Source: Candidatus Altimarinota bacterium (GTDB taxonomy: Bacteria; Patescibacteriota; Gracilibacteria; UBA1369). Taken from it: a stretch of 64,000 nt of DNA. The notes under the pieces were generated by a model that saw only the letters and a list, made by a program, of their open reading frames with translations, searched no databases and had not been told where the DNA came from. Positions within the stretch are counted from its first letter, which is position 1; every line of letters starts with the position of its first letter. Positions 6,308 through 64,000 of the stretch are shown piece by piece. The stretch covers positions 5,553 to 69,552 of the forward strand of contig JBGSPQ010000010.1 in the NCBI GenBank assembly GCA_041738505.1, written 5' to 3'. A program made the translations under genes and the position numbers.

Positions 6308-7302
6308 AACGATTCCCTCGCGCTCACATCATCGTCTTTTGAAAGTTCCAGAAAAGTAAAAGTCCACACCGAAGCCGCAAAAACGTGAATGGTGCCGTTT
6401 AAATATGCCGCCAGATAAAGCAGTCCCGCACCAATAACGCCACCCACCCCAAACGCCAGAATCGGCGCGGCCGTGGAAGTCACAAAATAAATAATTGTCG
6501 CCACCACCGCCGGGATCAAAAGCACAAACACAATCTGCACCAGAATCCTCACCGAAATAATCAACATTAAAACCGAAAGCAGCAGAGTTTCCTCCAAGTG
6601 CGTAACCACCAGCACGCAACTCTTGGAAATGGATTCAATCACTCTCTTGTCATCAATCACAATAAAAAATTCGGTGTAGGCAAAAAGCAGGGTAAGAATA
6701 ATCCCCACAATCGCAAAGAATATCGCCAGCGGCAGAAAAGCGTCCAAAGCTCCCCAGCCCAGATTCCGCGCCACAAAAGACGTCCATGAAATCATGGAAA
6801 CAAGACTGAAAGTTCTTATTATCCATGAGTATTCAAACAGCGGCAGAAAACTGAGCATCCCAAACCTGATCCCGTCCCTTGTCCGCACGTCCTGACCATT
6901 CCTTTTTCTGGCTATCAGCTGAATAATCGCACCCTCGCAAAAAGACGGCACCAAAAAATAAAAAATCATCACCACAATCACACCGATAATAATCGGGCCC
7001 GTCCAGGACAAATTATCCTGCAAAACCCCAAGCACATTGGTCACAAACACAACCGTAAAACTGCTTTGCCAATTCTGCATAAGCGGCGAACTTAAAATCG
7101 CATAGTACTGATAAACCAAATACAAAATACCCGCCAACGTCCCGAACAAAGCCGGCAAAAAAGCGTAAACCATTATCAGCTTTTTATTGTCCTGGGTAAA
7201 ATCCCAAGCCTCTTTGATTATCTGCCTGTAGGAAATACGCATAAGCTCAAAAAAGCTGAAAAAACTACTCCATATCTTAATCCATTCATCAAGACTTGCC
7301 AA
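6304..7302 (-). CDS. Polytopic membrane protein, function unknown
   Basis: 332-aa ORF with about 8 hydrophobic helices. The first codon is TTG and the next in-frame ATG is at 7242. The convergent 4-nt overlap with the previous gene fits the compact layout. Confidence 0.5.
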
Positions 7303-16131: not shown

Positions 16132-16614
16132 ATGACGCCGGATATCGCCCCGGGTGAAAAAGTAACCCCGGATGGGAATTTATATGCAAATTCGCACCAA
16201 ATTGATGAGCTGATTGGCAGGACTCCGAAAGTAGTCAGAAGGGCCGTTCTCGCCATCCTGGAAACACCTCCGGTAATCACCGAAAAGGAGCCGGATGATG
16301 AAATGGTGCTTCGCAATATGAAAATTCTGGCCGAGAATATCGGACCCAAACCCACCGACCTTACATTGTTTATACCATTAAACGGCAAACTCCCGGAACT
16401 GCTTAGGAAGAGCGGATGTGAATCGCTGGAAGCTCTTGTAGAAAAAATTCAGTCAATTGCCATCAAAGAGCGACTGGGTTTTCTGACCGGAGTAGATCAT
16501 GACGCCCGCCAACTGGTCGTGAATATTCACAAACAACCGGGTAAAGACTACTCCAGACCCATGTCAAAAGAGGACCATGATTTCATTTGTCTTTTTGACA
16601 CTGAAGTCTTTTAG
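16132..16614 (+). CDS. Hypothetical protein (~160 aa)
   Basis: The ORF 16126-16614 starts with TTG; the first ATG is 16132. It is co-oriented with and 30 nt from the preceding gene. Confidence 0.5.
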   Translation: MTPDIAPGEKVTPDGNLYANSHQIDELIGRTPKVVRRAVLAILETPPVITEKEPDDEMVLRNMKILAENIGPKPTDLTLFIPLNGKLPELLRKSGCESLEALVEKIQSIAIKERLGFLTGVDHDARQLVVNIHKQPGKDYSRPMSKEDHDFICLFDTEVF

Positions 16615-17702
16615 GGTTTGTCAGTCGGTGTTTCATTTAGTCCGCTTTTGGAGACGCCCTGCTGTTTTTTCATCATCAGGAAATACGCACCCGCCACAAC
16701 AACAATCACAATAAGCGCGATGCCAAAAGGATTGTGCAGTACCATGGAAACCAGTGATGTAACTGTTGTCAGAAGCAAAGCCGCCAGAAAAGTCACCGCC
16801 GTAACGGCCGTCTTGCCCAGTTTTGAAACAAAAGGCAGAGCCTCAAAAGCCACTGTCAGCGGTTTAAAAATCAGAAGAAGTCCCATCCACATAACAAAGA
16901 ACCCGATAATTCTCCAAACCCAGCCTTCGGTTTTATATTCCTCTTTCAGAACCGAAATTGCGTCTTCGTTGGTTCCCCAGAAAACGCGGTAAAGCCCTTT
17001 TTCGTTTTCACCGTGGTGGGCTTCCATAATATTACCGTCGAATCTTCCAAACACCGTGGATTTCTGCCCGGGATTCACAGCACTGTAACTGATTCTCACA
17101 TCTCCCACTTCCGGTTCCTGCAAAGTGCCGTAACCCCTAAATAGATAGTCATCGGCCACCTGCGAAAAATCATCTAAATAAACCATCTCCTCATTCAGAG
17201 ACACTTTATCGTAACCCGGCCATCTCACTTTATTGGGATCAACCTGGTAATCTCCCACAAATGCCTTATCCGCGAAAACCGTCAGATTCTTGATTTCCAT
17301 AGGATAATTTTCATGACCGCGTGCGTCGTTGAAATCTTCGCTGTCCGCGGGCTCGCTCACCCATGCGGTTTCATAGGTGTAATACTTAACATCATTATCA
17401 TCTGTCTCTACATCTTCCTCCCAGGCGTACATTTCCACATTCCTCTTTAAAGCCACATAATCACCCTCGGCAATATACTCATCGCCTATTCGACCTTCGG
17501 ATTTAAGTTCTCCTGTAACATAAACAAAATCATTCCCTCCGGCCGCAGTCGCATTCACGGCTTTATTAGCCACTATGCTGTAATCCGTCCGTCCCTCGGT
17601 GTTAAACAGCACCACAAAAGAAACCAAAAAAATCAAAATACCCACAACCATACCGCCGATGGAGCCAATAAGCTTATCGCCGAAACCTTGCGCTTGAGCC
17701 AT
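16611..17702 (-). CDS. Membrane protein with one N-terminal and about three C-terminal TM helices around a large external domain (possibly TMEM43/DUF1625-like)
   Basis: 363 aa. The topology is read from hydrophobic runs. VEMYAWEE resembles the motif I recall for DUF1625, but the family call is from memory. Confidence 0.45.
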   Translation of the reverse strand: MAQAQGFGDKLIGSIGGMVVGILIFLVSFVVLFNTEGRTDYSIVANKAVNATAAGGNDFVYVTGELKSEGRIGDEYIAEGDYVALKRNVEMYAWEEDVETDDNDVKYYTYETAWVSEPADSEDFNDARGHENYPMEIKNLTVFADKAFVGDYQVDPNKVRWPGYDKVSLNEEMVYLDDFSQVADDYLFRGYGTLQEPEVGDVRISYSAVNPGQKSTVFGRFDGNIMEAHHGENEKGLYRVFWGTNEDAISVLKEEYKTEGWVWRIIGFFVMWMGLLLIFKPLTVAFEALPFVSKLGKTAVTAVTFLAALLLTTVTSLVSMVLHNPFGIALIVIVVVAGAYFLMMKKQQGVSKSGLNETPTDKP

Positions 17703-23101: not shown

Positions 23102-25612
23102 CTATTTTTGTTGTGGAACGGGAAGCTTAACTATCCTAATCGTCGCCTTCTTTTTGATGTTGGGCAGACGTGTGGTGATAGTTTCCTCTTTCAGCTTTTC
23201 ATCCGGTTTTCGTTTGGATGGAATAAGCGCAATTTTCAGCACGTCATCAAGGGTGCTGGCATATTTTAGAGTGACACCGCGTAAAATCACCGCGGGAATT
23301 TCCGTAACATCCTTTTTGTTTTTCTCGGGCAGAATTATTGTTTTGATATTCGCTCTCTTGGCCGCCAGAATTTTTTCCTTTAGTCCGCCGATAGGCAGAA
23401 TACGGCCTGTTAAAGTCACTTCCCCGGTCATCGCCACATCCCGCCTTACTTTCTGGTTGGTCAGAAGTGAAATCAGCGCCGTGCAAATTGTTATACCGGC
23501 CGATGGTCCGTCTTTGGGAACCGCGCCCTCCGGAACATGAATGTGAATATCGGAAGTTTTGAAAATATCATCACTGATATTGAATTTGTGTGAATTGCTT
23601 CTGATGTAGCTCAAAGCAGCTCTCGCCGATTCCTGCATCACATCGCCCAGATTGCCCGTCATAATCAGATTCTTGTCGCCCGGCATCCTTGTTGCTTCAA
23701 TAAATAAAATATCCCCGCCGTAAGGCGTCCAGGCCAGACCTGTCGTAACTCCAACCCTGTCCTCCTCCTGGGCCTTTTCAAACTCATATTTATCCACTCC
23801 CAGATACTGCTCCACCTTTGCGCTGTCAATTTTTGGAGTTTTGACCAGTGTCTTTTCTATCAGATCCTTGGCCACTTTTCTGCAAATGGAGGCGATCTGC
23901 CTCTCCAGTTCACGCAGACCGGCTTCATTGGTGTAGCTTCGAACCAGTTTTAAAATCGCATCATCCGTAAAAATGAGCTTTCTGCTTTCCAGTCCGTTGG
24001 CGATTTTTTGTTTGGGGATAAGGTATTTTTTGGCAATCTGCAGTTTTTCCTCCTCGGTGTAGCCGGGTAGTTCAATCACCTCCATTCTGTCCAACAGCGC
24101 CGGCGGAATCGGATCAAGAAAATTGGCGGTGGTAATAAAAAAGACCTTGGAAAGGTCAAACGGCACGTCCAGATAATGGTCGGTAAAAGCATGATTCTGC
24201 TCCGGATCCAGCGCTTCCATCAGCGCCGCCGCCGGGTCCCCCTGAAAGTCCTTTCCCACCTTGTCTATTTCATCAAGCATAAACACCGGATCGTTATAAC
24301 CGGCTCTTTTTAGTGATTGAATGATTCTTCCGGGCATCGCTCCAACGTAGGTTCTCCTGTGTCCGCGAATATCTGCTTCGTCACGTATGCCTCCCAGTGA
24401 GGTGTGAACAAAAGACCTTCCCAGAGCCCTTGCAATGGACTGCCCGAGAGAGGTTTTTCCAACTCCGGGGGGGCCGACAAAGCATAAAATCGTCGCGCCT
24501 CTTTTGTTATTCAGCTGGCAGACCGCCAAAAATTCCAATATGCGCTCTTTCACTTTTTCCAGTCCGTAATGGTCTTCATCCAGAATTTTGCGCGCCTTTT
24601 TAACATCCGCTTTTACCGGACAGCTTTTTTCCCATGGCATGTCGCACAGCCATTCAATATAGGTGCGCGCCACCGTGTATTCGGGTGAAATCGGAATGAT
24701 TTTTTTCAAACGGTCCAATTCTTTTCTGGCGATTTTTTCCACGCTATCCGGCATTTCCGCCTTATTGATTCTCTGTTCCAAATCGCGAATATCCTCCTTA
24801 TCCGTCATTCCCCCCATACCCAAAACGTCCTCCTCATCTTCCCCAAGCTCCTTTTTGATAGCCTTCAACTCCTGCCGGAGCAGATAATTGCGTTCACTTT
24901 TGTTAAGTTCCTGGGAAATATCGGTATGAATTTTTTTGCGGATTTTTGAGAGTTGGATTTCCTTGTTCAGATAATCCAGAATCAGTTTTATTCTCTTTGC
25001 GGAATCGGTCATACTCAACAGTTCCTGCTTTTTGATAATTTCCAGCGTCAATAATGAGCAGGCCAAATCAAGAATGTCATCAAAATTATGTATTTTACTT
25101 AGTCCCGTGATTACTTCCGGAGGAAGATTTTTGCCCTCCAACGCCAGACGTGCGATCAAATCCTTGATTTCCTGGGCGCCCGCTTCCAAATCGACATTCG
25201 CATCTTCGCTCTTTTCAATGGGTTTGATGTTTGCCTGCAAAAATGGTTTTTCCTGAGTGAACTGTCTCACCTTGAAACGGCTGATTCCCTCCACCAGAAC
25301 CATCGCGTCGTTGCCGGTGCCGCTCTTAATAACCTGTAATACGGAAACACTGGTACCGACATCAAAAAGATTTTCAACCGGCGGAACCGGTTTTGACGAG
25401 CTTTTTTGCGTTATCAGCCCAATAAGTTCACCGTCCTGCGAAGCCTTGTTAATGGCATCAATCAGTTTTTCGTTCTTTACATATACGGTGATAATCATGG
25501 ACGGAAAAACGACCAGATCACGCAGAGGAATGATCAGAATATTTAAAGGCAGTTTATAATCTTTTTCCGCAGGGACATCCTGTTCGGTATTCTGTGCGAA
25601 TTCGTCTTCCAT
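23102..25612 (-). CDS. lon: ATP-dependent Lon protease (LonA type)
   Basis: N-terminal LON domain, Walker A GPPGVGKTSLGQSIA, and protease domain PKDGPSAGITICTALISLL with catalytic Ser. Confidence 0.95.
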   Translation of the reverse strand: MEDEFAQNTEQDVPAEKDYKLPLNILIIPLRDLVVFPSMIITVYVKNEKLIDAINKASQDGELIGLITQKSSSKPVPPVENLFDVGTSVSVLQVIKSGTGNDAMVLVEGISRFKVRQFTQEKPFLQANIKPIEKSEDANVDLEAGAQEIKDLIARLALEGKNLPPEVITGLSKIHNFDDILDLACSLLTLEIIKKQELLSMTDSAKRIKLILDYLNKEIQLSKIRKKIHTDISQELNKSERNYLLRQELKAIKKELGEDEEDVLGMGGMTDKEDIRDLEQRINKAEMPDSVEKIARKELDRLKKIIPISPEYTVARTYIEWLCDMPWEKSCPVKADVKKARKILDEDHYGLEKVKERILEFLAVCQLNNKRGATILCFVGPPGVGKTSLGQSIARALGRSFVHTSLGGIRDEADIRGHRRTYVGAMPGRIIQSLKRAGYNDPVFMLDEIDKVGKDFQGDPAAALMEALDPEQNHAFTDHYLDVPFDLSKVFFITTANFLDPIPPALLDRMEVIELPGYTEEEKLQIAKKYLIPKQKIANGLESRKLIFTDDAILKLVRSYTNEAGLRELERQIASICRKVAKDLIEKTLVKTPKIDSAKVEQYLGVDKYEFEKAQEEDRVGVTTGLAWTPYGGDILFIEATRMPGDKNLIMTGNLGDVMQESARAALSYIRSNSHKFNISDDIFKTSDIHIHVPEGAVPKDGPSAGITICTALISLLTNQKVRRDVAMTGEVTLTGRILPIGGLKEKILAAKRANIKTIILPEKNKKDVTEIPAVILRGVTLKYASTLDDVLKIALIPSKRKPDEKLKEETITTRLPNIKKKATIRIVKLPVPQQK

Positions 25613-43615: not shown

Positions 43616-44635
43616 ATGAATAACATCAATGAAACACCTGACAAAATATCGGACAAAGAGTTATACAAAAAATGCGTAATCTATGGAAGACAGGCGCTCC
43701 GGGCGCGCAGAAAGTTCATTGGTCTTCTACCGGAAGTTTACAAAAGACAGCTTTACCAAAAAAAAGGTTGCGGATCAATTCATGAATTTGCCGCGAAAAT
43801 GGCTGGAATAAGTCACGAACAGGTAAACAGAGTATTGAGCCTGGAAAAAAGATTCATTGCCACTCCCATCTTGCACGCGGCATTGGCCGAAGGAAATATC
43901 AGCGTCAACAAACTTCTTAGGCTTGCTCCGATTGCGACTGCCGAAAATCAGGCAAAACTGGCAAAAAAAGCTGAAGTCTTGTCAAATCGCGCGCTGGAGG
44001 TTTTTGTTCAGGATTACAAAAGAGAGAAAACGGGGGATTATGCAAATGGAAGTGGCTTTGTGAAGAAGCAAACGAAGGGCAAATCCGTGCACCACCGCCA
44101 AGGCGGGGTCTCCGACGTGCACGTGCACGGACATGGACACGAAACCATACCGACCATGAATTTGGCATCGAATGTCGGAGCCGCGCCTATGCTGAATCTT
44201 GCACCGGATGTAGAGGCCGAACTCACTCAATTACAGCAAAAAGGCCTGGATATAAACGAAATTCTGCGCCAATTTTTGCACGACAGACAAGCAAAAATAG
44301 AACAAACAAAACGGGAACTTGCCATAAAACAGGCGCGTGAATATGAGGAGAAATCAATGATCGGCATGCCCGCGAAAAGATACATCCCCGCGGAAATAAG
44401 AAAAATCATCACAGCCCAACACGGCACACAATGCACGGCCTACGGATGTGCCAAAAAAGCTGAAAATCTACACCACGAAAAACCGTTCGCCACATTCCGG
44501 TCCCATGACCCGCGCCACCTCAAACCCCTCTGCCGCGCGCATCACGAAATCGTCCACTCCGAAGACGCAAAAGTGTTGCTGCATAAGCGTTTTATGACAA
44601 ACGCACATCTTCCATATTCAGGTCAGCGCCGTTGA
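43616..44635 (+). CDS. HNH endonuclease with DUF222-like N-terminal domain (paralogue 2)
   Basis: 339 aa. C-terminal CTAYGCAKKAENLHHEKPFATFRSHDPRHLKPLCRAHHEIVH. The N-terminus is collinear with paralogue 1. Confidence 0.8.
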   Translation: MNNINETPDKISDKELYKKCVIYGRQALRARRKFIGLLPEVYKRQLYQKKGCGSIHEFAAKMAGISHEQVNRVLSLEKRFIATPILHAALAEGNISVNKLLRLAPIATAENQAKLAKKAEVLSNRALEVFVQDYKREKTGDYANGSGFVKKQTKGKSVHHRQGGVSDVHVHGHGHETIPTMNLASNVGAAPMLNLAPDVEAELTQLQQKGLDINEILRQFLHDRQAKIEQTKRELAIKQAREYEEKSMIGMPAKRYIPAEIRKIITAQHGTQCTAYGCAKKAENLHHEKPFATFRSHDPRHLKPLCRAHHEIVHSEDAKVLLHKRFMTNAHLPYSGQRR

Positions 44636-54394: not shown

Positions 54395-55069
54395 TCAGCA
54401 TACCCGCGCCAGCACAATTGCGTAAACCTTTTTACAGCCCGCGTTTTTAAGCGTCAGCGCGCATTCGTTCAAAGTGGAAAGAGTTGTCGCCACATCATCA
54501 ACCAGAAAAACGCATTTGCCCGAAAGACTCAAAATCGTATCTTCAAAATCCTTATCAATCACAAAAGCCCCGCGGATGTTTTTTATCCTGTCTTCGCGCT
54601 TCAGCTCCATCTGCGCTATTCGAAAGTGAATTCGCTTAAGCGGATAAATCACATTAATTCCACAAATCGTTCCAACCCTTTTTGCCAGCAGATCCGATTG
54701 GTTAAATCCCCTCCATTTAAACCTTTTCTTATGAAGCGGCACCGGGCAAAGCACTGCATCGTCTCTATTAAGCGATTCATTCATTTTTTCCGCCATCAAC
54801 CGCCCCAGCGGTATAAAAAGTTCCTTAATCAAATCATATTTAAAAGAGTGGATCAGCCTTGCCGGAAGAGAATGATCTTCATATCTATAAACCGCCATTA
54901 TCCCATCCAAAGGGGAATCTTTTGGGATTGAGATTTGGTCGGCCGTCATCATTTTTTGCAGTGATTTAAAGCATTTATCGCATACAAAAGCCCCCTCCAG
55001 ACCGCAATTAAGACAAAACGCCGGAAAAAACAAATCCTTCAGAAATCCTATAAAAATATCTTTCAACAT
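54395..55069 (-). CDS. comFC: ComF-family protein (zinc-ribbon plus phosphoribosyltransferase domain)
   Basis: N-terminal CLNC..C..C zinc ribbon. PRTase loop VFLVDDVATTLSTL. Confidence 0.75.
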   Translation of the reverse strand: MLKDIFIGFLKDLFFPAFCLNCGLEGAFVCDKCFKSLQKMMTADQISIPKDSPLDGIMAVYRYEDHSLPARLIHSFKYDLIKELFIPLGRLMAEKMNESLNRDDAVLCPVPLHKKRFKWRGFNQSDLLAKRVGTICGINVIYPLKRIHFRIAQMELKREDRIKNIRGAFVIDKDFEDTILSLSGKCVFLVDDVATTLSTLNECALTLKNAGCKKVYAIVLARVC

Positions 55070-55169
55070 AATTTAGCCCTTTACTCAATTAAAACATCTG
55101 CTAAAATAACTAATGCCATAAACGGATTAAGGAATTCTAAAAAAATGCTTAAATCCGCGGGCGGCCCAA

Positions 55170-55246
55170 GGAGTTATAGCTCAGTTGGCTAGAGCGCAGC
55201 ATTGACATTGCTGAGGTCGGAGGTTCGACTCCTCCTAACTCCACCA
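55170..55246 (+). tRNA. tRNA-Val (anticodon GAC), CCA encoded
   Basis: GGAGTTATAGCTCAGTTGGCTAGAGCGCAGCATTGACATTGCTGAGGTCGGAGGTTCGACTCCTCCTAACTCCACCA folds as a cloverleaf. The anticodon loop is TTGACAT. Confidence 0.92.
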
Positions 55247-55276
55247 TTAGACACTCAACAACCATTAACAAACCAT

Positions 55277-55789
55277 ATGCCAGACGATACAAATCAACAG
55301 GGAGCCGGTCAGGGAGCTTCACCGCAGGGCGGCATGCCCGGAGCAGGTGACATGGGGGGATTTATGGGTGGATTTCCGCCTCCTCCTCCGCCAAAGGAAG
55401 AAGATAAGACTCCGGCCAATTACAAAATCGGACAGCATCTGCCAAAAATGATAAATGTGGTCATTCCGGCTCACAACCTTTCTTTTGACGAGCAGTATTT
55501 TCTGCATCTGCTTGCCGGATCCATCTCATTGGCCAAAGACGAAAAGAAACGAATTATTGAGTCAATTCCCAAATTAAGGCAAGAGCAGGTGGACGAACTT
55601 ATCCGCATTTTTGAAGAGGAGAGAGCCAAATTCGCCGAACTTTCCGCCAAACACGTGGAACAATTAAAGAAGCTGGAAAAACAGCATTTGGCTGATTGGC
55701 AGGACATAGAGCTGGAGCAGAAAGCCGGGGAAAAGCAGCAGGCCGACGAAGACGAGGCGGATAAAATCCGCAAACAGTTGGGGCTGTAG
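55277..55789 (+). CDS. Hypothetical low-complexity plus coiled-coil protein (paralogue of 34855-35421)
   Basis: The track ORF 55202 starts inside the tRNA; the first ATG after the tRNA is 55277 (MPDDTNQQGAGQ). It has a G/P-rich N-terminus, then DEQYFLHLLAGSISLAKDEKKRIIESIPKLRQEQVDELIRIFEEE, then a coiled coil. Confidence 0.5.
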   Translation: MPDDTNQQGAGQGASPQGGMPGAGDMGGFMGGFPPPPPPKEEDKTPANYKIGQHLPKMINVVIPAHNLSFDEQYFLHLLAGSISLAKDEKKRIIESIPKLRQEQVDELIRIFEEERAKFAELSAKHVEQLKKLEKQHLADWQDIELEQKAGEKQQADEDEADKIRKQLGL

Positions 55790-55838
55790 AGGGGTTATCT
55801 AAAAAGTTTGTATTCCATTCCGGTTTACATCGGGCATT

Positions 55839-55866
55839 TTGCATATAGATAGAAATATGTTATAAT
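55839..55866 (+). promoter_or_regulatory. Promoter TTGCAT-16-TATAAT
   Basis: TTGCAT 55839-55844 and TATAAT 55861-55866, 50 nt before ATG 55917. Confidence 0.5.
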
Positions 55867-55916
55867 TATATGAATAGTATTTCATTGCATATTTTACTTA
55901 AAATTGGATTAACAAA

Positions 55917-56351
55917 ATGCAGGAATCACAAGCAACAGAAGATTCGGATATAAAAAATTTTCTTCCCGCTACCGTTCGAGATGTGAATTCAACAGATATT
56001 TCCGATATCGAACCTTTGGACGATTTACATTATGTAGAGGATCGAAGAGAAATAACAAATACCGCGGTTCATAATGTTACCCGTGCAAGCGCAAGTGAAC
56101 AGCAAATAAAAAGTCGTACTGCCGAATATGTACGCAGAAGAGAGTATACGGAAGTTTTTTTCCCGGTGATGGATATTGAACAGGCCCTTATGAGAACCGG
56201 TATTGGGAATGAAGTGATTTCAGATTTGATCAATATCATAAAAGTTGGCAGGCAGAATGTGTTTCCACCGGGGTTTGTTATTGAAAAAAAAGGTAAGCGA
56301 TTCTTGAATTTGGCCGTTTTAAGCGGAGAAGATCCTGAATTATTGGAGTAG
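55917..56351 (+). CDS. Hypothetical protein (144 aa) preceding the giant gene
   Basis: ATG start. Same strand as the giant ORF and about 40-55 nt upstream of it. No motif recognised. Confidence 0.5.
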   Translation: MQESQATEDSDIKNFLPATVRDVNSTDISDIEPLDDLHYVEDRREITNTAVHNVTRASASEQQIKSRTAEYVRRREYTEVFFPVMDIEQALMRTGIGNEVISDLINIIKVGRQNVFPPGFVIEKKGKRFLNLAVLSGEDPELLE

Positions 56352-56390
56352 CTTAAAAGTGTTCACGGTGCCTATGAGCTGTTTGTTGCT

Positions 56391-59300
56391 TTGGATAGGG
56401 ATCTGATGATGCAGGGTAAACATTCTGTGCATCTTTTGAATTTTAAGAAAAAAAGAATTGAAGTCGCCGAAAGAATGTCTGCCGAAGTCAGAAAGTACGG
56501 AAGACAAGCGATCGACCTTGAATATGAGCTTGCCGGATTGGATACGTGTCATTCTTTTCAAAGCGAGGAGATTAAAGAGAGTTGTCTGATTTTGCAGAAT
56601 TATTGTCAGGCGATAATGGACAAAATCAGTGCGGTATCGGGACTAAAAAATGTGAAACCAAAAATATATTTGACCAGGTCGATGACAGCCAATGCCTTTG
56701 TATGGGCAGAGCATGGGGAGGAAGGAATAAAGGATTTATTGGAATTGGCACGGGCGGGCAAAGAGGTTGAATTACCGGTTTTTGTTCATGCGGGGCTGGT
56801 GCAGTCATTAAGATATGATGATGAGTTGGCCGGAATTTTTGCGCATGAATTGACACATTTAATGCAGCCCGCATATAACAGGCAAAATTCGGATCAGGAA
56901 AAACAGAGGTTGGAATATGATGCGGATAAAAACGCTCTTCATCTTACCGATGCCGCCGGCTTTAACCCCCGCGGGTTATTATCATGTTTTGAATCCCACA
57001 ATAATCGGGATATTGTTTCAAGCCTCGGTATGTCTTCGCATCCCGCAACCGAATCAAGAATCACCGAGCTGGAAAAGGAATATCATCGCAAGGATCTGCC
57101 ATTGATTAACAGTGGTAAAAGCATGAAACATTTGCCGGAGAATATGTCAGAGGCCGTTAATGCGCTTGAAAAAGCTCAATCGTTAAAAACAAACGATATT
57201 GATTTATCAGAATTGGAAAGAAAAGAAAAATTGGATGAATATTTGGAGCAAAATTCGGGTGCGGATTTGTATTTCAGAAAAGGGTTTAATGGTTCAATTC
57301 ATTCAATAGCTAACAGCAGATTAATAGAGGAGGCGATTCATCAGGAACTGGTGCATGGAACATTGGGACATCGGGCGAGAATGTTAAATGCCTTGAGCTG
57401 TTTTTTAGCCGGTTTACAGCTAAAAGCGGTAAATACCGATCCCGATGTGCGTTACGATTTTGAAAATCCTAAAAGTTACCGGAGTGATATTGGTGCGGTT
57501 CCCGATCTTGATGAATATTTTAATGCTCCAAAAGAGGAGAAATATATCAGTGATTCGGACAATCTTAAAAATTATGAGTTAAACGGAGCCGTTGAAACAT
57601 TCACAAACCTGGAAGAGGAAATGAAGGCACTGGGTTTGGAAACGGAAATTGGCAAATTTCCCAAAACCATTGAAGAGTGGATAAACATGGACAATGAATA
57701 TACCGACCTTTTTTGGAAGCTGTATGATGAAAATGGAGTTCACGACAAGAAGCAACGGTTAAACATCTTAATGGGTGTAATGAGGGTTTATATGACAATG
57801 CCATCGGTCGAAAAGGTCTGCAAAATCGAAAAGGTGACCCGGTATGTGATTAAAAGAAAAGAACCTATCGAACCAAAACCGGAGGGGGTGCTGCAAATGC
57901 TCCCTGAAAGGTTGCGCACGCAAAAAAGAAAAAACGATTTGGAAATTGAGTACGAGGACGTTGAAGTGAAGAAAGAAAAGAAGGAGTCATTATTCAGCTC
58001 ATACGCGAGCGGATTGAATTTACCTCATGGCATGAGAAAAATAGATTATATGGATCAGGCTCCGCTGATAAGGGGTCTGGCCAGGACTCTGCATGATAAA
58101 TCCATTGATGCATATCGGGAAATTTTGACTCTGGACGGTGTGGGGCAGGTTGATCCCAAAGTGTTGGAATTCATTTTGCTCAATTTTTATAACAATTCTA
58201 ACGGAGTCAGTTCAAATCAAGGAGTATTACTGGATGGGTTGGACAATCCAACAATTACGTTTTTGGATCAGGTGGTGAGGGTTTTGGAGTCAAAAAACCT
58301 ATGCAGGAGTTTTTCGGATCCCATAATAGGTAATTTCGGTATTCAGAATTCGCATGCACAGGCATACATTATGGTGATAGCATTCGGGTTGAAACCAAAA
58401 AATGAGCAAGAAAAGGAAATTAGAGAAAACTATCTGAAAAGAGTGATGGTTGATCCTTTTTTAGGCGGCAACAGGGGGGAGACACCCACCTATATATTGT
58501 ATCTTAAGACTGACGATCGGATGCTTGAGCATTTTGATGAGGAGTTTGTTCAAGCTGAACCATGGAGAGGGGATAACTATGATTTGAGTATTATTAATTT
58601 GAGAAGTGTAGCTCCAAGTGTTAGCGCTCATTGGATAATCAATAAAGAGCGGTTTTTGGCAGAAATGCAAAGCGTTTTAAATGGTGGGGAAAGCGGTGCG
58701 GGACTGGAAATCAAAGAAGATGTACGTAAGAAAATAAAAACAAAGATATTAAGAGCGGTTGAGAAAAAACCCCTGCTTAATAGAATGGTAAGTAAAGCCG
58801 ATGACAAAAAAGAACGTGAAATGTTAATTGATGATTTAATGGGTTTATCGGCATTAATGGGAAGGTATGTGGATAAAACCTATGAAGATGTATTGCCAAA
58901 TCATGATTCGGTTAAGGCTATGTTTAAAAAGGAACAGCAATGGTATTCATCTGTTGGGAGCAATCCCGGTCCCGACATTGTAAGGTTTATGGTGAAGGAG
59001 ATCGCAAAAGTTTTTGATGTTTCAACTCTTCGAAAGCATGTTAGGGCTACGGACAAGGATCAATCGGATGAAGATTTGCTCTTCTCCGTATTCGCAAAAA
59101 TGACCTCGGTGGATGATAGGTTGGAAAGGTATCAGGAAGTTACATATTTAAGCAATGAGGCTCATGGGAATGTCGCCCTGGATGAGTTTGTTTATGAATA
59201 TGGTGGTTGGAAAGCATCATACGAACGTTATGATGTTGACGATTTGAAAGGGGCGAGATACCTTTTATATAGAAAAAAAGATTTACCTACGGGTTCCGAA

Positions 59301-62300
59301 GCCGGTATAGACGAAGAGACCCTTTATAAATGGTTGGAAGCATTGGCCGTGACCCGTCCCAAAGCCGCCGAGCTGCTTAAATATCTGAAACGTGATGATG
59401 TAATAATCTATTCTGATGTGATGCGTTTTTGTATGGGCAGTTTTATCGGGTTTAAGAAACTGGGTGAATCACTGGATTTGAAATACAGTGAGGTAAAGAA
59501 AAGAAAAAATGAGATTCGCAAAGGTATAAAAATTGCGCGCCTTTGCGGTGCAATTTATCATGACAAGTGGAAAAATATTGAAGGTTTTAAGCGGATGGAT
59601 GAGCAACTAAGTAACTGGGAGTGGGTTTATGATAATCCGTTTTTTGGGGAAGTTACACCTGATAAAAAAGAGGGCGGCAGTAAAGATAACAAAGCATTTA
59701 TTTATTCCCTTTTAGAAAAGCATGGATCAGCATTGGGGAAATATTATCGATGTGAAACCGGGCATGGGATCGAGTTCTCCTGGCCGCTTCTGATGATTGA
59801 TCTTTGGAATGGTGATTTGGATTTGAAGTTTATTGAAGATGATCAGGAACGGGAAAATGTAAAAAAGATGTTGGATATTGTTTTAGAGAAGATGAAAGAA
59901 ATAGTTGCGGATAAATCCAATCTTGCAGTTGTCATAGCGATGCAGCCGGGGTTTTTCAGGGAATTCATTATAAAAGAAAAGATGAAATTGATTGGCGTGA
60001 AAGATACAGTGGAAGAATTACATGAATGGATGCCTCAATTTTCATCTTTGGCGCATGAGGCCAGTGAAAACAATCAGATTTCGAGTCAGGTGGAAAATGT
60101 GCGGCGGGAAATTGTTAAAAAGAGAAAGGAGGCACTGATTGCGGAGGCCATTGAGTATGTATTGCCGGACACCGTCAGTGATGAAGTAAAAGGCGCAATA
60201 ATTGCATCAACCGGCCGATTAAATAAAATGATGGTCGAAATGGATTGCGATATACATGTTGCTAATAAAAAAGAGCTGAGGGATAAAAACGGCGACATGA
60301 CTGAAGTTGGCAAGACTGCAATCGAGATATCGGAGCGGTACAGGGATGCAATTTTGGAACGATACAAATTGCTGATGGAAATGGAGGTTCAACAGATGTC
60401 AGAGGAGGATTCCGTGGATGAAGAGGATGTATATTTGTTTTCTGATCATGTTATTGAAAATGATAAAAGCAGGTTGGAAGTGGGGCCGGTGTATAGATTC
60501 CAGATTGGAGCACAGCCTTTGATGGATTGGCATGTCAATAAACTTCGAGCGGCCGGCTCGGTTGGTGAAATGAGGGATTGTGCAAAAAAAGTTGATGAAT
60601 TTTTTCCCGATAGACACCCGCTAAAAGACATTTACCTGAAAAATCAGTTAAATCTTGAGCTGTGGCGGATCTTGAGTGATGAAATTGGTGAGATGCAGTT
60701 GGCGGAAATGGGCATAGCTTTAACGGAAAAGAAAATTGATTTAGATAAAGATTTGTCTCATTTTCCCTTATATAAGAATGTAGTGTTTTTAAAACATTAT
60801 TCCGTCTTTAAATTGGAGGGTTTACTTGATAAGTTCCAAAATTTACCGGCAACCACGGTTTCCGGCATCATGGGGAGACTTGCTTATTACATTGAAGAAA
60901 AAGTAAGCGAGGCCTCAAAGCCGGGCATGAGAAGACTGCTGTTTTTGATGGAAGAAAAAGCCGTATGGCCGTCAATTTTAAGTAGAAGAGATAGTGATCC
61001 GGAGATTTTTGAAAAATATTTGAGTCACATTGAAAGGTTTTTCCCCAATCCCTCTTTGGAAAAAGATAATCTGCTGGAAACAATTATGATGGATTTGGCC
61101 TTGAATCAGGCAGAGGTGAACAAAGCCCTCAACTTAAGGTATGCGGAGCAGGTTTTATTGCCGGAACAGAAGGAATCTTTAGCATTAAAAGCACAATATC
61201 AAGCTTTTGAAAAAATAAGGTTCTATGTTTCGAATATGGATCGAATTGAGAGGGCTGAATTTGTACTGTGGCTTATGGGGGGAGAGCCGCCCCTGGCCAA
61301 CACTCTTTCAATTAAGAGCACAGGTATTTCTTTGGATGGAAGAAAAGAGGTTTTCTGGCAAATGACACCCAATGAAAGAAGAAATTTGTTATATGAGATT
61401 TTGCAGGACAATAATGGTTTGTTCAGGGAATATTCTTCCTATGGTTATGGAACCCCCGAGCCCAGGCCCTTTCCGATGGAGGTGAAAAATGACAGCATGA
61501 TGAGATATCTAGTTGAGGAAATTTTTGAGATCACGTTTAAGGGTCTCTTAATAAATGAAAAATTACCTGCCGATCATGAAGAGAATATAAAGGGGCGGGA
61601 TATTTTAAAAACAATATTTGAAGGACTATTTATTCATCAGCAAGATCCCGTTCGCAGGACGGAGTTGTTACTGAATATTATTGAAGCGATTGGGACAGCC
61701 AGAAAAAAAGGCGAGAAGCTGGGAACACCGGAATTAATCAGGTTGATGGCCGAGCAGGGGGGTGTTGTTATTGTTAAATTTTCACAGGTTTTATCCGAAC
61801 AGCCGGACTTATTGCCGGCATCCATCAAGGAAGCATTAAGTGATTTGAAAGATAGTGCGACCGTTGTATCAAAGAGGTCCGATTATGCATATTTACAGGC
61901 GACGGGATGGTTAAGGGATAATGTGGATGGCATAGCCGAAGTTGGTAAGAGCATAGGAAGCGCGTCAATTAAACAGTGTAGAAAAGGTGTTTTGAAAAGC
62001 GGTCAGCCGGTTGCCATAAAAACCAAGAAACCGAGTATAGAGAAATATTATAAGGAGGATTTACAGGTGGTTGGGAAAATACTTTCTTCTTTGGAAGAGA
62101 AATATGAAATTCCTTCTTATTTAATTACAGAGGTTGAAAAGGTGATCCATGAGGAACTGGATTTTGGACGCGAGGTTGATAATCATTTGGCGCTTCGGGA
62201 ATCCTTGATAGAAAGAAAAACGGCTATGTCGGTGGAAGTCGCTAACCGGGACTATTCTTTTCCGATTGAAGTGGTCGCGCCGGTTGCAATTTATCCAAAC

Positions 62301-63137
62301 TCTTCGGCAAATGATGCCGGGGTCGGTTTAATGGTGGAGGAATTTGCCCGCGGACTATCCTTAAATGAAATTCAGAAATTTCAGAAGGCCGTTCGAGAAA
62401 ACAATATTGAAGTGTTGCAAAAAATCAGAAAGAGAATTTATGAAGTATATCCGCAGCAGGCACAGGAAATTGAGGATAAAATCAAGAAATTGGATCTGGA
62501 ACATTTTCAATCCGGAATGGCTTTGGAATTACTTAAACAAATAATGAAGGGTGGAGTTTTTCACGCCGATCTTCATGCCGGGAATATATTTCTTGATTTA
62601 TTGCCCTGTTCAAGAGACGGGGAAATCCATCAGGGAAAAGTTGTTCTTATTGATTTGGGTAGCATGGGGTATTCGAACTATGAAAAAATGCCAAAGGCGG
62701 TACGGCAAGATGTGGAAGAAGGATTTGATGTTAGAGAGGAATTCAAAGATTTTTTGAGTGCTCTTTTTTCACAAAGCGGGCATACGGATAAAATTGCGGA
62801 AATTATCAACAAGTTTACAGGTCTGAAATGGACTGATAAATCCGTTTCGGCATTGATCGGTAAAGGTTTGTCGACTCAACAGAAGGTAAAAAAGATATTT
62901 TATGAGATTTTGAAAGATTGCAAGGATTCAAACGCAGAAATTGATATGCAGTTTAGATATTTTTTGAAAGCGATAGCTACTTCGGCTGATCATTTGGATA
63001 ATTTGAAGAATAAGTTGATGCAGGAAATGATGTACATGATGTCTCAAGGTGGGCAGATCTCCAATGAAGAGAGGGACAAGATGTTTTATACGATTTTACA
63101 GAATGAGCGGTTGTTAAACTTTGGATTAATATTTTAG
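56391..63137 (+). CDS. Giant (about 2243-2248 aa) multidomain protein: N-terminal M48-type zinc metalloprotease, long helical middle, C-terminal UbiB/ABC1-type atypical protein-kinase-like domain
   Basis: The ORF starts at TTG 56391; the first ATG is 56406. IFAHELTHLMQP (HExxH codons at 56844-56858), LEYDADKNALHLTDAAGFNP and SSHPATESRI make the M48 pattern. GVVIVKFSQVLSEQPDLLP, VAIKTKKPS, EELDFGREVDN, GVFHADLHAGNIFLD and VLIDLGSMG make the UbiB/ABC1 pattern (~61720-62800). No TM segment or signal peptide is seen. Confidence 0.8.
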   Translation: MDRDLMMQGKHSVHLLNFKKKRIEVAERMSAEVRKYGRQAIDLEYELAGLDTCHSFQSEEIKESCLILQNYCQAIMDKISAVSGLKNVKPKIYLTRSMTANAFVWAEHGEEGIKDLLELARAGKEVELPVFVHAGLVQSLRYDDELAGIFAHELTHLMQPAYNRQNSDQEKQRLEYDADKNALHLTDAAGFNPRGLLSCFESHNNRDIVSSLGMSSHPATESRITELEKEYHRKDLPLINSGKSMKHLPENMSEAVNALEKAQSLKTNDIDLSELERKEKLDEYLEQNSGADLYFRKGFNGSIHSIANSRLIEEAIHQELVHGTLGHRARMLNALSCFLAGLQLKAVNTDPDVRYDFENPKSYRSDIGAVPDLDEYFNAPKEEKYISDSDNLKNYELNGAVETFTNLEEEMKALGLETEIGKFPKTIEEWINMDNEYTDLFWKLYDENGVHDKKQRLNILMGVMRVYMTMPSVEKVCKIEKVTRYVIKRKEPIEPKPEGVLQMLPERLRTQKRKNDLEIEYEDVEVKKEKKESLFSSYASGLNLPHGMRKIDYMDQAPLIRGLARTLHDKSIDAYREILTLDGVGQVDPKVLEFILLNFYNNSNGVSSNQGVLLDGLDNPTITFLDQVVRVLESKNLCRSFSDPIIGNFGIQNSHAQAYIMVIAFGLKPKNEQEKEIRENYLKRVMVDPFLGGNRGETPTYILYLKTDDRMLEHFDEEFVQAEPWRGDNYDLSIINLRSVAPSVSAHWIINKERFLAEMQSVLNGGESGAGLEIKEDVRKKIKTKILRAVEKKPLLNRMVSKADDKKEREMLIDDLMGLSALMGRYVDKTYEDVLPNHDSVKAMFKKEQQWYSSVGSNPGPDIVRFMVKEIAKVFDVSTLRKHVRATDKDQSDEDLLFSVFAKMTSVDDRLERYQEVTYLSNEAHGNVALDEFVYEYGGWKASYERYDVDDLKGARYLLYRKKDLPTGSEAGIDEETLYKWLEALAVTRPKAAELLKYLKRDDVIIYSDVMRFCMGSFIGFKKLGESLDLKYSEVKKRKNEIRKGIKIARLCGAIYHDKWKNIEGFKRMDEQLSNWEWVYDNPFFGEVTPDKKEGGSKDNKAFIYSLLEKHGSALGKYYRCETGHGIEFSWPLLMIDLWNGDLDLKFIEDDQERENVKKMLDIVLEKMKEIVADKSNLAVVIAMQPGFFREFIIKEKMKLIGVKDTVEELHEWMPQFSSLAHEASENNQISSQVENVRREIVKKRKEALIAEAIEYVLPDTVSDEVKGAIIASTGRLNKMMVEMDCDIHVANKKELRDKNGDMTEVGKTAIEISERYRDAILERYKLLMEMEVQQMSEEDSVDEEDVYLFSDHVIENDKSRLEVGPVYRFQIGAQPLMDWHVNKLRAAGSVGEMRDCAKKVDEFFPDRHPLKDIYLKNQLNLELWRILSDEIGEMQLAEMGIALTEKKIDLDKDLSHFPLYKNVVFLKHYSVFKLEGLLDKFQNLPATTVSGIMGRLAYYIEEKVSEASKPGMRRLLFLMEEKAVWPSILSRRDSDPEIFEKYLSHIERFFPNPSLEKDNLLETIMMDLALNQAEVNKALNLRYAEQVLLPEQKESLALKAQYQAFEKIRFYVSNMDRIERAEFVLWLMGGEPPLANTLSIKSTGISLDGRKEVFWQMTPNERRNLLYEILQDNNGLFREYSSYGYGTPEPRPFPMEVKNDSMMRYLVEEIFEITFKGLLINEKLPADHEENIKGRDILKTIFEGLFIHQQDPVRRTELLLNIIEAIGTARKKGEKLGTPELIRLMAEQGGVVIVKFSQVLSEQPDLLPASIKEALSDLKDSATVVSKRSDYAYLQATGWLRDNVDGIAEVGKSIGSASIKQCRKGVLKSGQPVAIKTKKPSIEKYYKEDLQVVGKILSSLEEKYEIPSYLITEVEKVIHEELDFGREVDNHLALRESLIERKTAMSVEVANRDYSFPIEVVAPVAIYPNSSANDAGVGLMVEEFARGLSLNEIQKFQKAVRENNIEVLQKIRKRIYEVYPQQAQEIEDKIKKLDLEHFQSGMALELLKQIMKGGVFHADLHAGNIFLDLLPCSRDGEIHQGKVVLIDLGSMGYSNYEKMPKAVRQDVEEGFDVREEFKDFLSALFSQSGHTDKIAEIINKFTGLKWTDKSVSALIGKGLSTQQKVKKIFYEILKDCKDSNAEIDMQFRYFLKAIATSADHLDNLKNKLMQEMMYMMSQGGQISNEERDKMFYTILQNERLLNFGLIF

Positions 63138-63148
63138 CCCCCCCTCCA

Positions 63149-63243
63149 CCTCTGAGGTTGATTGAGATGGCTTAAATAAGCCCTTTTAGATTTAGGCGAT
63201 CGCAGAAGAAAGCCGTTTTTTCAACGTGAATCAACCTCAAAGG
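63149..63243. repeat. 15-bp inverted repeat (14/15) separated by 65 nt just downstream of the giant gene
   Basis: CCTCTGAGGTTGATT (63149-63163) and AATCAACCTCAAAGG (63229-63243). An internal small hairpin GGCTT-AAAT-AAGCC plus CTTTT could act as the terminator. Confidence 0.5.
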
Positions 63244-63338
63244 TTAAAGATAGTAGTAAAATAGCTTTGACAAAATAGCAAGAAAGTGTTACAAATATAC
63301 TCCACGTGTAATGATTAGTGGCAATAACCATTTAAACA

Positions 63339-64000
63339 ATGCAAACAACAACCACAACCATGAACCCAAATCTCAACAGACAACCCGGAGTGACCGGCTC
63401 ACCCGCAGTAGCGGTGGAAGCCGCAAAACCGCTGGCCGGTACCGAAAAGAAATCGGTTATGGCCAGAATATCCTCCGTAAGCTCGGGCATATTCGGAAAA
63501 ATCAAAAGTGTAATGCCATTTGTGAATTCCGCCGAAGTTGCGGCGCCGGTGCCGGTTGTACCGAATATTCCCAACTACAAACCGATTACACCCGCCGATT
63601 TAGCTCCAAAAAACACAATGGTTTACCGGCCTCCGATGGCAATCCCGCGCAGAGGTGAGGTGGCAGGAGTTGCGGCTAAAAGAAGCGCTCCCGATTTAAG
63701 CAAAGACCTATTTGCCCATCTTTCCGAAAAACCTGCTGACGATTCTTCCGCTTCCGCCAAAACCGAAGGACAGACATTAACTTTAAATGGACTCACCTCT
63801 GCAAAATTAAGCGTTTACCCGGCGGGCAGTATGCCGAAGGCCAGAGTTATACCCAGAAACGCTCCTGCCGTGGATTACAAATTTGAATACCAAGAACCCG
63901 CGGAAGAAAGTCGTGCAAACAATTTCGCTCCCAATCTTTCCAATGTTTTTAAAAGAAATGCTGTGCTTTCGGCAACAGAGGCGGTAAAACCCGCGGTGGC
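63339..64000 (+). CDS. Hypothetical protein, 5' part (open to the end of the window)
   Basis: My translation from ATG 63339 (MQTTTTTMNPNLNRQPGVTGSPAVAVEAAKPLAG...) has no stop through 64000. It is absent from the track because it has no stop. A possible promoter TTGACA-17-TACAAA lies upstream. Confidence 0.5.
   Translation, partial: MQTTTTTMNPNLNRQPGVTGSPAVAVEAAKPLAGTEKKSVMARISSVSSGIFGKIKSVMPFVNSAEVAAPVPVVPNIPNYKPITPADLAPKNTMVYRPPMAIPRRGEVAGVAAKRSAPDLSKDLFAHLSEKPADDSSASAKTEGQTLTLNGLTSAKLSVYPAGSMPKARVIPRNAPAVDYKFEYQEPAEESRANNFAPNLSNVFKRNAVLSATEAVKPAV

Follow-up and report, generated by a model that had tools for sequence, protein, structure and literature searches.

Fusion of an M48-type metalloprotease to a UbiB/ABC1-type domain in a small family of giant bacterial proteins

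A 64,000-nucleotide stretch of DNA from a Candidatus Altimarinota bacterium (assembly GCA_041738505.1, contig JBGSPQ010000010.1, positions 5,553 to 69,552 of the forward strand; hereafter the window) encodes a giant protein in which an M48-type zinc metalloprotease is joined to a UbiB/ABC1-type atypical kinase-like domain through about 1,500 residues of unfamiliar sequence. Judged from the sequences recovered, the protein belongs to a small, rare and apparently undescribed family whose members occur either as one fused gene or as two adjacent genes. We therefore hold with high confidence both that the architecture is genuine and that the M48 and UbiB/ABC1 activities are functionally linked. 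Both catalytic domains are of known kinds, and what is new is their obligatory association, a conserved N-terminal domain and the long central region. The preliminary description of this DNA, made from its letters alone, had noted that no protease-UbiB fusion was known, and the searchable literature, including surveys of giant bacterial genes, likewise yielded no description of an M48 protein fused to an ABC1/UbiB domain.

That description had read an open reading frame (ORF) of 2248 amino acids at 56391-63137 on the forward strand as such a fusion. The ORF listing contains this frame with all of the quoted motifs in place, and profile searches bear out both terminal domains, with their catalytic residues intact (residues are numbered here by this ORF). 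The N-terminal enzyme matches Peptidase_M48 (PF01435) at 40.4 bits against a cut-off of 20.3 (E 3.7e-10), and PDB entry 3c37 at E 1e-4 as a single sequence and at 3.5e-13 when the family profile is used. A zinc-site motif (HExxH plus ExxAD) is predicted from HELTH (aa 152-156) and EYDAD (aa 175-179), with E175 aligned to the ExxAD Glu of 3c37, and is followed by AGFNP (aa 189-193) and SSHP (aa 215-218). Across 14 aligned sequences the H, E, H, E, A and D of these motifs and the H and P of [ST]HP are invariant, and family-wide the HExxH with its following QP, R.E..AD, AG.NP and the HP of [ST]HP are invariant or nearly so. The HExxH...ExxAD...[ST]HP signature is common to the giant and to soluble M48 proteins such as the Geobacter protein 3c37 and BepA and LoiP of E. 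coli, the latter two of which work in the cell envelope. However, the giant has no signal peptide or lipobox, which places it in the cytoplasm, no TPR domain was detected in it, and its scores against the NCBIfam equivalog models for BepA, LoiP and HtpX fall far below their cut-offs. A membrane or envelope location (HtpX, Ste24, OMA1; BepA, LoiP) is typical of characterised M48 members and does not define the fold; here there is no transmembrane (TM) helix, and the N-terminus is hydrophilic and acidic.

The UbiB/ABC1 proteins form an ancient group that occurs very widely and whose human members cause disease when mutated; whether they act as ATPases, as lipid or small-molecule kinases or as protein kinases is still debated. 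The C-terminal enzyme of the giant matches ABC1 (PF03109) at 73.1 bits over aa 1853-2095 (cut-off 22.9, E 2.5e-20); UbiB-like NCBIfam matches reach back to aa 1767-1771, that of TIGR01982 being partial and beginning at aa 1771. Its motifs are KFSQ (aa 1796-1799), VAIK (1874-1877), ELDFGRE (1922-1928), HADLHAGN (2058-2065) and IDLG (2087-2090). The kinase catalytic set is thus present as K1877, the alpha-C Glu of ELDFGRE, D2060, N2065 and D2088, and the columns equivalent to VAIK, ELDFGRE, HADLHAGN and IDLG are invariant in the 14 sequences rather than degenerate across orthologues. The invariant or near-invariant positions family-wide are the K and Q of KxGQ, the ASIK of SASIK, the catalytic Lys, the alpha-C Glu, H.D.H.GN and D.G. 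Two departures from the canonical pattern occur. At the KxGQ position the window protein has K1796-F-S-Q1799 and its closest homologue, P0002, has KFAQ, so that K and Q remain but the Gly does not; the canonical [IV]KxGQ is found in most relatives, and K and Q are invariant in the alignment of the 14 fused members. The nucleotide loop, G-S-A-S-I-K-Q, is Ala/Ser-rich rather than Gly-rich, with Ser as the first residue of the Ala triad; SASIK occurs in nearly every member that bears the domain and AASIK in one (P0013).

With UbiB, COQ8 (ADCK3) and ABC1K proteins the giant has in common an ABC1 domain that scores above threshold, the K and Q of KxGQ, an Ala/Ser-rich loop in place of a Gly-rich one and the catalytic Lys, Glu, HxDxHxGN and DxG. 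The giant differs from them in lacking C-terminal TM helices, in carrying the domain at the end of a 2,400-aa protein with an insertion of about 60 aa inside it, in the replaced KxGQ Gly of the window protein and P0002, and in having no quinone pathway context in the window. A word-indexed search with the kinase segment returned only ordinary UbiB proteins (558-577 aa) at 25-26% identity, and the equivalog cut-offs are missed widely (TIGR01982, 98.9 bits against 487.55; PRK04750, 81.4 against 667); on these scores the window protein is not a UbiB orthologue. The best-scoring solved ABC1 structures are those of MABP-1, the Rv3197-type mycobacterial protein (7cy2 and 5yjz at 35.7 and 35.2 bits, against 24.6 for COQ8A). 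MABP-1 is likewise soluble, bacterial and free of TM helices, but it is a protein of about 440 aa with neither a protease domain nor a large helical region, and the window protein scores 18.4 bits against the cut-off of 800 in the MABP-1 model NF050082. PADLOC defence models gave only marginal local matches (E>=1.6e-4), on the kinase catalytic loop.

In a database of 5.8 billion clusters the only close homologue was P0002 (2427 aa, JGI sample 3300078331), 59% identical to the window protein over its whole length and carrying 156 extra N-terminal residues. The distribution of the fusion emerged when a profile of the central region (aa 571-1760, trimmed alignment) was run exhaustively with HMMER against 1.84 billion representative proteins: there were 32 matches at E<=1e-3, in fused and split forms. 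The fused giants among them are the window protein and 12 other full-length representatives (2327-2450 aa), along with two divergent long fused proteins, P0035 (2480 aa) and P0036 (1808 aa); the other matches are nine short forms of 1402-1538 aa and fragments. All 14 full-length sequences, P0002 included, match both PF01435 and PF03109 (best E 6.8e-16 and 1.5e-28), and no other Pfam family is common to them. Compared with the PDB, the 14-sequence profile retrieved only M48 structures (3c37 as above; BepA at about 4e-4) and ABC1 structures (MABP-1 7cy2 and 5yjz; COQ8A/B). Identity of the family sequences to P0002 is only 24-34%, that of the window's own copy (database entry P0001) being 60%. 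No match was found for the N-terminal and M48 segment in a word-indexed homologue search, nor for the central region in a tblastn search of a plasmid collection. No relative was found among GTDB species representatives, JGI metagenome contigs or IMG/VR in a two-sequence scan whose peptide patterns are specific to the subclade of the window protein and P0002.

The short forms indicate that the two enzymes belong together. At every short-form locus examined, an M48-containing gene lies directly upstream of the ABC1 gene. The two overlap by 4 nt in L085/L086 (M48 gene 931 aa, ABC1 gene 1451 aa) and in L090/L091 (912 and 1426 aa), and are 2 nt apart in L088 (974 and 1538 aa). The upstream products are colinear with columns 38-576 of the giant profile, which comprise the N-terminal domain, the M48 domain and the post-M48 region (hhalign 99.9%, E 9e-32), and the short ABC1 proteins with columns 1099-2321 (hhalign 100%, E 7e-149). 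A split pair therefore corresponds to a giant divided after roughly the first 40% of its sequence, close to aa 840 in the numbering of the window ORF (about nt 58900, hhalign), and the summed lengths of the pairs (2338-2512 aa) bracket those of the giants. One fused locus (L082, 50-11833) and one split locus (L090, 5266-20281) have like neighbours, namely PBP2, GreA, a class II aminoacyl-tRNA synthetase and CTP_transf_like, which points to a single orthologous locus. A rough neighbour-joining tree, drawn without support values from the C-terminal module that the forms have in common, places the fused giants in one clade and the split forms in its sister clade, with the divergent but fused P0035 and P0036 outside both; this branching suggests an ancestral fusion followed by one fission. 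Since fusion and fission are found at what is apparently one orthologous locus, the two enzymes would work together, and a conserved fusion accompanied by a split two-gene form is classic Rosetta-stone evidence for cooperation between the two activities.

The window gene proved longer than first described. The preliminary description set its boundary at 56391 and took a 144-aa ORF upstream (55917-56351) for a separate unknown one, but the two ORFs lie in the same frame with a single stop, codon 145, between them. Because the 144-aa ORF is in frame and homologous to the N-terminus of every full-length relative, aligning with the extra residues of P0002, the real gene is 55917-63137 and the upstream ORF is its N-terminal domain, cut off by one TAG. 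This corrected gene is colinear with P0002 and 12 further full-length relatives. The N-terminal domain is contiguous with the M48 part in 14 of the 14 other aligned members that cover the region, is spanned by the upstream proteins of the split forms as well (hhalign match), and has no Pfam family above threshold.

Two explanations of the TAG were rejected. Genome-wide reassignment of the codon to Gln or pyrrolysine does not agree with its use as a terminator in 13 of 45 window ORFs, among them those of PNPase, Lon, the arginase and the giant gene itself, which encode proteins of normal length with full-length Pfam matches; TAG is therefore not generally recoded. An evolved internal start is not supported either. 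The candidate restart codons are TTG 56391 and ATG 56406, the latter implied by the database entry P0001 (2243 aa), and the sequence preceding them is not A/T-rich, unlike the leaders of other window genes, which argues against an evolved two-gene arrangement; in the naturally split relatives, on the other hand, the genes overlap by 4 nt. We consider it most likely from these sequences that the window copy is one gene interrupted by a single recent nonsense mutation or by a consensus or sequencing error. Low-level read-through, or a restart at ATG 56406, would still yield the part that holds both enzymes.

A minority probability, not a negligible one, attaches to the possibility that the window copy, as distinct from the family, is a pseudogene or a functionally split gene. 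This genome uses TAG as a genuine stop; at the position where the TAG stands, P0002 has CAA (Gln) and each of the other 13 aligned members has either a sense codon or a gap; and the database entry begins after the TAG. However, it is the only lesion in 7.2 kb, and the 144 codons before it and the 13 after it are conserved like the rest, with 51% identity against 53-60% (DPELLE before the stop, or before Q in the homologue, and LK..HGAYELF after it). The N-terminal domain shows no extra decay, its 51% identity to P0002 comparing with 40-60% in most neighbouring variable regions; the restart codons lack a native-looking A/T-rich initiation region; and a base-calling error, a minority allele and a mutation of very recent date would account for the data equally well. 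Assembly artefact has a vanishingly small probability. Apart from the unusual architecture, nothing favours a chimera of an M48 gene and a ubiB-like gene, and it is refuted by 13 other full-length colinear sequences from independent samples (Logan, ENA, JGI and NCBI) and by conservation that is unbroken over the whole length.

Between the two enzymes, the stretch of about 1500 residues in which the preliminary description recognised no motif is equally unfamiliar to profile searches, with no match in Pfam, NCBIfam, PADLOC, PHROG or the PDB sequences, and self-BLASTP detected no internal repeats. The fusion adds some 1,500 conserved residues without a recognisable fold. They are probably helical, as far as low-confidence AlphaFold (AF2) models indicate; in these the first part of the region is mostly helical. 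Built from a 2-sequence alignment, the models of aa 1101-2248 and aa 1-1150 reached mean pLDDT values of 39.1 and 35.0 and were unusable. The second part is a pre-kinase module common to the short forms, and aa 992-1766 is the stretch most conserved with respect to P0002. Its motifs are WEW, FSWPLx..D.W, QPGFF[KR]EF, HE.SE.NQ, LFSD.VIEN.KS.LE.GP.YR and HPLKD.F.KNQL; WEW, FSWP, the G and E of QPGFF.EF and the HE....N of HE.SE.NQ are invariant in the 14-sequence alignment. In BLASTP, P0024 matches the window protein with 28% identity over 871 aa (E 2e-81).

The protein of about 2,400 aa is predicted to be soluble and cytoplasmic. As the preliminary description had noted for the two terminal domains, the window protein has no TM helix (maximum Kyte-Doolittle mean over 19 residues, 1.15), and it is acidic, with 398 Asp and Glu against 330 Lys and Arg; TM helices and signal-peptide-like N-termini are lacking throughout the family, in which the 19-residue hydropathy never exceeds 1.61. 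Many fused members (for example P0001, P0002, P0007, P0014 and P0018) end in hydrophobic tails such as ...LLNFGLIF, ...LINIDLLF and ...LINFDLLGL, that of the window lying at 63093-63134, and many short forms end in ...LKPL.E..P.L...LG(L). Such a tail could serve as a peripheral membrane anchor, or as an autoinhibitory or degron-like peptide.

We tentatively propose that the UbiB-like domain acts as in COQ8 and UbiB, binding and hydrolysing ATP rather than phosphorylating proteins. Hydrolysis would be triggered by a hydrophobic or lipid-like ligand or by a membrane surface, and the ensuing nucleotide- or ligand-dependent change would, via the large central region, gate the M48 protease or deliver a client to it. 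The outcome would be an energy- or ligand-regulated protease for membrane-, lipid- or envelope-associated clients. The architecture is observed, whereas this specific coupling of ATPase and protease is our reconstruction from it, and we regard it as possible but short of probable. UbiB-family proteins have been described as ATPases whose activity is stimulated by membranes and phenolic lipids and whose KxGQ domain occludes the protein-substrate cleft (bioRxiv 10.1101/149823; PMC8956952). The nearest documented parallel, by analogy, is found on plastoglobules and cyanoglobules, where ABC1 kinases and the M48 protease PGM48/sll1280 are co-resident and are co-expressed or co-enriched (PMC12223511; bioRxiv 10.1101/2021.02.05.430006; PMC8956952). 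In that pairing the same two enzyme families act on one compartment but as separate proteins, on a lipid droplet of photosynthetic organisms, and no evidence of lipid droplets or photosynthesis was found in the window. The fusion would supply a Rosetta-stone link for this pairing on plant and cyanobacterial lipid droplets, where the joint presence of ABC1 kinases and an M48 protease is unexplained. Being soluble, free of TM helices and naturally divided into two separable halves, the protein could also be a tractable system for studying the effect of a UbiB domain on a partner enzyme.

In the way it might work, the giant can be likened to Lon and FtsH, which are fused ATPase-protease machines, FtsH also being a zinc HExxH protease: in each case a nucleotide-hydrolysing module and a protease share one polypeptide. 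The likeness extends to the manner of working only; neither the window protein nor the 14 relatives have an AAA-type Pfam match and the nucleotide module has a protein-kinase-like fold. A much bolder reading is that the family exemplifies a new class of energy-dependent protease, in which a UbiB ATPase that senses lipids or hydrophobic ligands, and not an AAA+ module, would drive or gate an M48 protease through a novel helical fold of about 1,500 residues, and that UbiB/ABC1 proteins generally join M48 proteases in surveying lipid-associated proteins, which would be their long-sought function. We think this unlikely; if true, such a partnership would explain the pairing of ABC1K and PGM48 in plastoglobules.

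Several observations weigh against the coupled mechanism. Neither AF2 model can be used to support coupling between the domains, and the uninterpreted central 1,500 residues could themselves hold the real function. The KF[SA]Q of the window protein and P0002 and the Ser that opens the Ala triad in the family mean that UbiB-like ATPase chemistry is assumed here. The plastoglobule parallel is an analogy, the gene neighbourhoods are heterogeneous and reveal no clear pathway, and because of the internal TAG the window copy may not be made as one protein, or may be a pseudogene.

The genes that surround the relatives are mainly chromosomal ones of housekeeping or cell-envelope type (PBP2, BacA, glycosyltransferases, MreB, DUF4012, aminoacyl-tRNA synthetases, GreA, the CCA-adding enzyme, an ABC transporter and Ham1). 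In L084 the giant gene directly follows BacA (undecaprenyl-diphosphatase) and a PBP, and the neighbours in L082, L090 and L084 hint that the module is connected with the cell envelope or with polyprenyl lipids. The locus of P0036 (L089, 4122-13497; Logan SRR8426595) continues with APH, an aminoglycoside-nucleotidyltransferase-like gene, two small AAA_17/18 kinases and an MFS transporter, a cluster of antibiotic- or xenobiotic-related character; the closest solved ABC1 structure, MABP-1, is a macrolide-binding ATPase. Upstream of the P0002 gene (L001, 1311-2280), a RhuM-family gene runs into a 69-aa Fic fragment that looks like a truncated or frameshifted Fic/Doc gene, and a partial radical-SAM gene precedes RhuM; these pieces are possibly remnants of a mobile or toxin element. 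Apart from the RhuM and Fic remnants of L001, the neighbourhoods are not defence islands. The absence of a quinone pathway, noted in the preliminary description, was confirmed for ubi, men and prenyl-quinone genes among the roughly 40-55 window ORFs scanned, and none was noted in the relatives' loci except for one generic UbiE-like methyltransferase in L087.

Other functions can be envisaged for the same two enzymes. In one, the protein would be a hub of genuine kinase activity towards proteins or small molecules: the ABC1 domain would phosphorylate targets, the M48 domain would process those phosphorylated targets or the protein itself, and the centre would serve as a docking scaffold. The full kinase catalytic set is conserved, as such a role would have it, and AtABC1K6, a plastoglobule protein, has been reported as a Mn2+-dependent protein kinase (PMC8956952). 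Changes in the Ala triad, which here is altered to S-A-S, unmask kinase activity in ADCK3 (PMC8956952), and the Gly of KxGQ is lost in the window protein and P0002. However, the substrate cleft is described as occluded by the KxGQ domain (bioRxiv 10.1101/149823), the K and Q of that motif are invariant in the 14 aligned fused members, and gene context offers no substrate candidates, so we judge a kinase hub improbable. Somewhat lower still is the likelihood of a xenobiotic or antibiotic tolerance factor, in which an MABP-1-like drug-binding ATPase would act with a protease that clears damaged or drug-stalled targets. The MABP-1 structures are the closest solved ones, there is a weak NCBIfam match to MABP-1, and P0036 adjoins the resistance-like genes described above; against this, the match lies far under its cut-off, and resistance-like neighbours occur at one of about ten loci, the rest being housekeeping or cell-envelope genes.

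The preliminary description had also raised a role in host interaction, and a secreted or surface effector acting on a host cell is the least probable of these functions in our estimation. In favour of such a role, the protein is large, its lineage is poorly characterised, many ORFs of the window lack a Pfam family, a sortase is encoded in the window, and the P0002 gene adjoins RhuM and Fic fragments. However, no family member has a signal peptide, a TM helix or an LPXTG-like end, neither internal repeats nor any adhesin or further non-catalytic Pfam domain is present, and ATP-dependent chemistry implies a cytoplasmic site. Secretion-system genes are absent near the relatives' loci, and searches of plasmid and viral collections did not turn up the family. 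With no TM helix or signal peptide, and with housekeeping or envelope genes as neighbours, the host-interaction idea is thus unsupported. Positions of the features of the gene are collected in Table 1.

Table 1. Features of the giant gene and its flanks in window coordinates; aa numbers refer to the 2248-aa ORF unless stated otherwise.
Feature	Position	Strand	Description
Promoter-like site	55838..55866	+	TTTGCA-17-TATAAT with TG upstream; 10/12 consensus match; upstream of the true start 55917
Complete gene	55917..63137	+	2406 codons including one internal TAG, plus the terminal TAG
Conserved N-terminal domain	55917..56348	+	144 aa; identity to P0002 aa 1-142 51%, E 1e-48
In-frame TAG	56349..56351	+	CAA (Gln) at the aligned position in the closest homologue P0002
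Codons from the TAG to the first possible restarts	56352..56408	+	Conserved with the homologue (LKSVHGAYELFVALDRDL)
M48-type zinc metalloprotease domain	56595..57086	+	aa ~69-232
M48 motif HELTH	56844-56858	+	
M48 motif EYDAD	56913-56927	+	E-x-x-A-D third ligand
M48 motif SSHP	57033-57044	+	
Central region, first part	57087..59363	+	aa 233-991; no family or PDB match
Central region, second part	59364..61688	+	aa 992-1766; pre-kinase module common to the short forms
UbiB/ABC1 atypical kinase-like domain	61689..62780	+	aa ~1767-2130
ABC1 motif KFSQ	61776-61787	+	
ABC1 motif SASIKQ	61959-61976	+	
ABC1 motif VAIK	62010-62021	+	
ABC1 motif ELDFGRE	62154-62174	+	
ABC1 motif HADLHAGN	62562-62585	+	
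ABC1 motif IDLG	62649-62660	+	
C-terminal extension	62781..63137	+	Conserved FRYFLKA.AT.ADHLD.LK; helical in low-confidence model; tail ...LLNFGLIF, then terminal TAG
Terminator-like hairpin	63169..63190	+	GGCTTAAATAAGCC with T-rich tail; 32 nt past the stop; consensus match only

The promoter that the preliminary description had assigned to the gene stands in part. The site is present and is the best-scoring one in 55000-64000, but the region holds 13 promoter-like sites where 20.9 would be expected from shuffled sequence, so that there is no enrichment. Shine-Dalgarno-like sequences were seen at 3 of the 35 ATG-start window ORFs tested, and A/T-rich leaders precede the starts instead; this pattern suggests Shine-Dalgarno-independent initiation in the lineage and may be a taxonomic clue. 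Like the sortase, CdaA and CdaR encoded in the window, it is no more than a hint to the taxonomy. Over the giant gene (56001-62000) the GC skew is +0.23 to +0.32, against about +/-0.1 elsewhere, and the GC content is lower, at 0.40-0.41; this may reflect the purine-rich codons of a Glu/Lys/Asp-rich protein.

The window as a whole is an ordinary bacterial chromosome, encoding PNPase, Lon, RelA/SpoT, LigA, DnaX, PolX, CdaA, CdaR and a sortase, as well as an agmatinase-like arginase, an aldehyde dehydrogenase, YchF, HisA/F and a type I dehydroquinase. Its Lon (23102-25612), an ordinary one, is at most 52% identical to that of any GTDB species representative, with matches scattered over many phyla. 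An Rfam scan found tRNAs only. One of these, tRNA-Val (55170-55246), is overlapped by an ORF at 55202-55789, whose true start is therefore probably an ATG near 55283; the small product has a Gly/Pro/Met-rich N-terminus, a highly charged helical C-terminus and no Pfam match. Many other sizeable ORFs have no Pfam family either, including those at 9944-11884 (-), 43616-44635 (+), 3102-4187 (-) and 6304-7302 (-), one such ORF being 645 aa long, and this high share fits a poorly sampled lineage. The gene at 16611-17702 (-) matches the TMEM43 family (PF07787, E 5e-42), here in a bacterial form; the family is better known from eukaryotic nuclear-envelope proteins.

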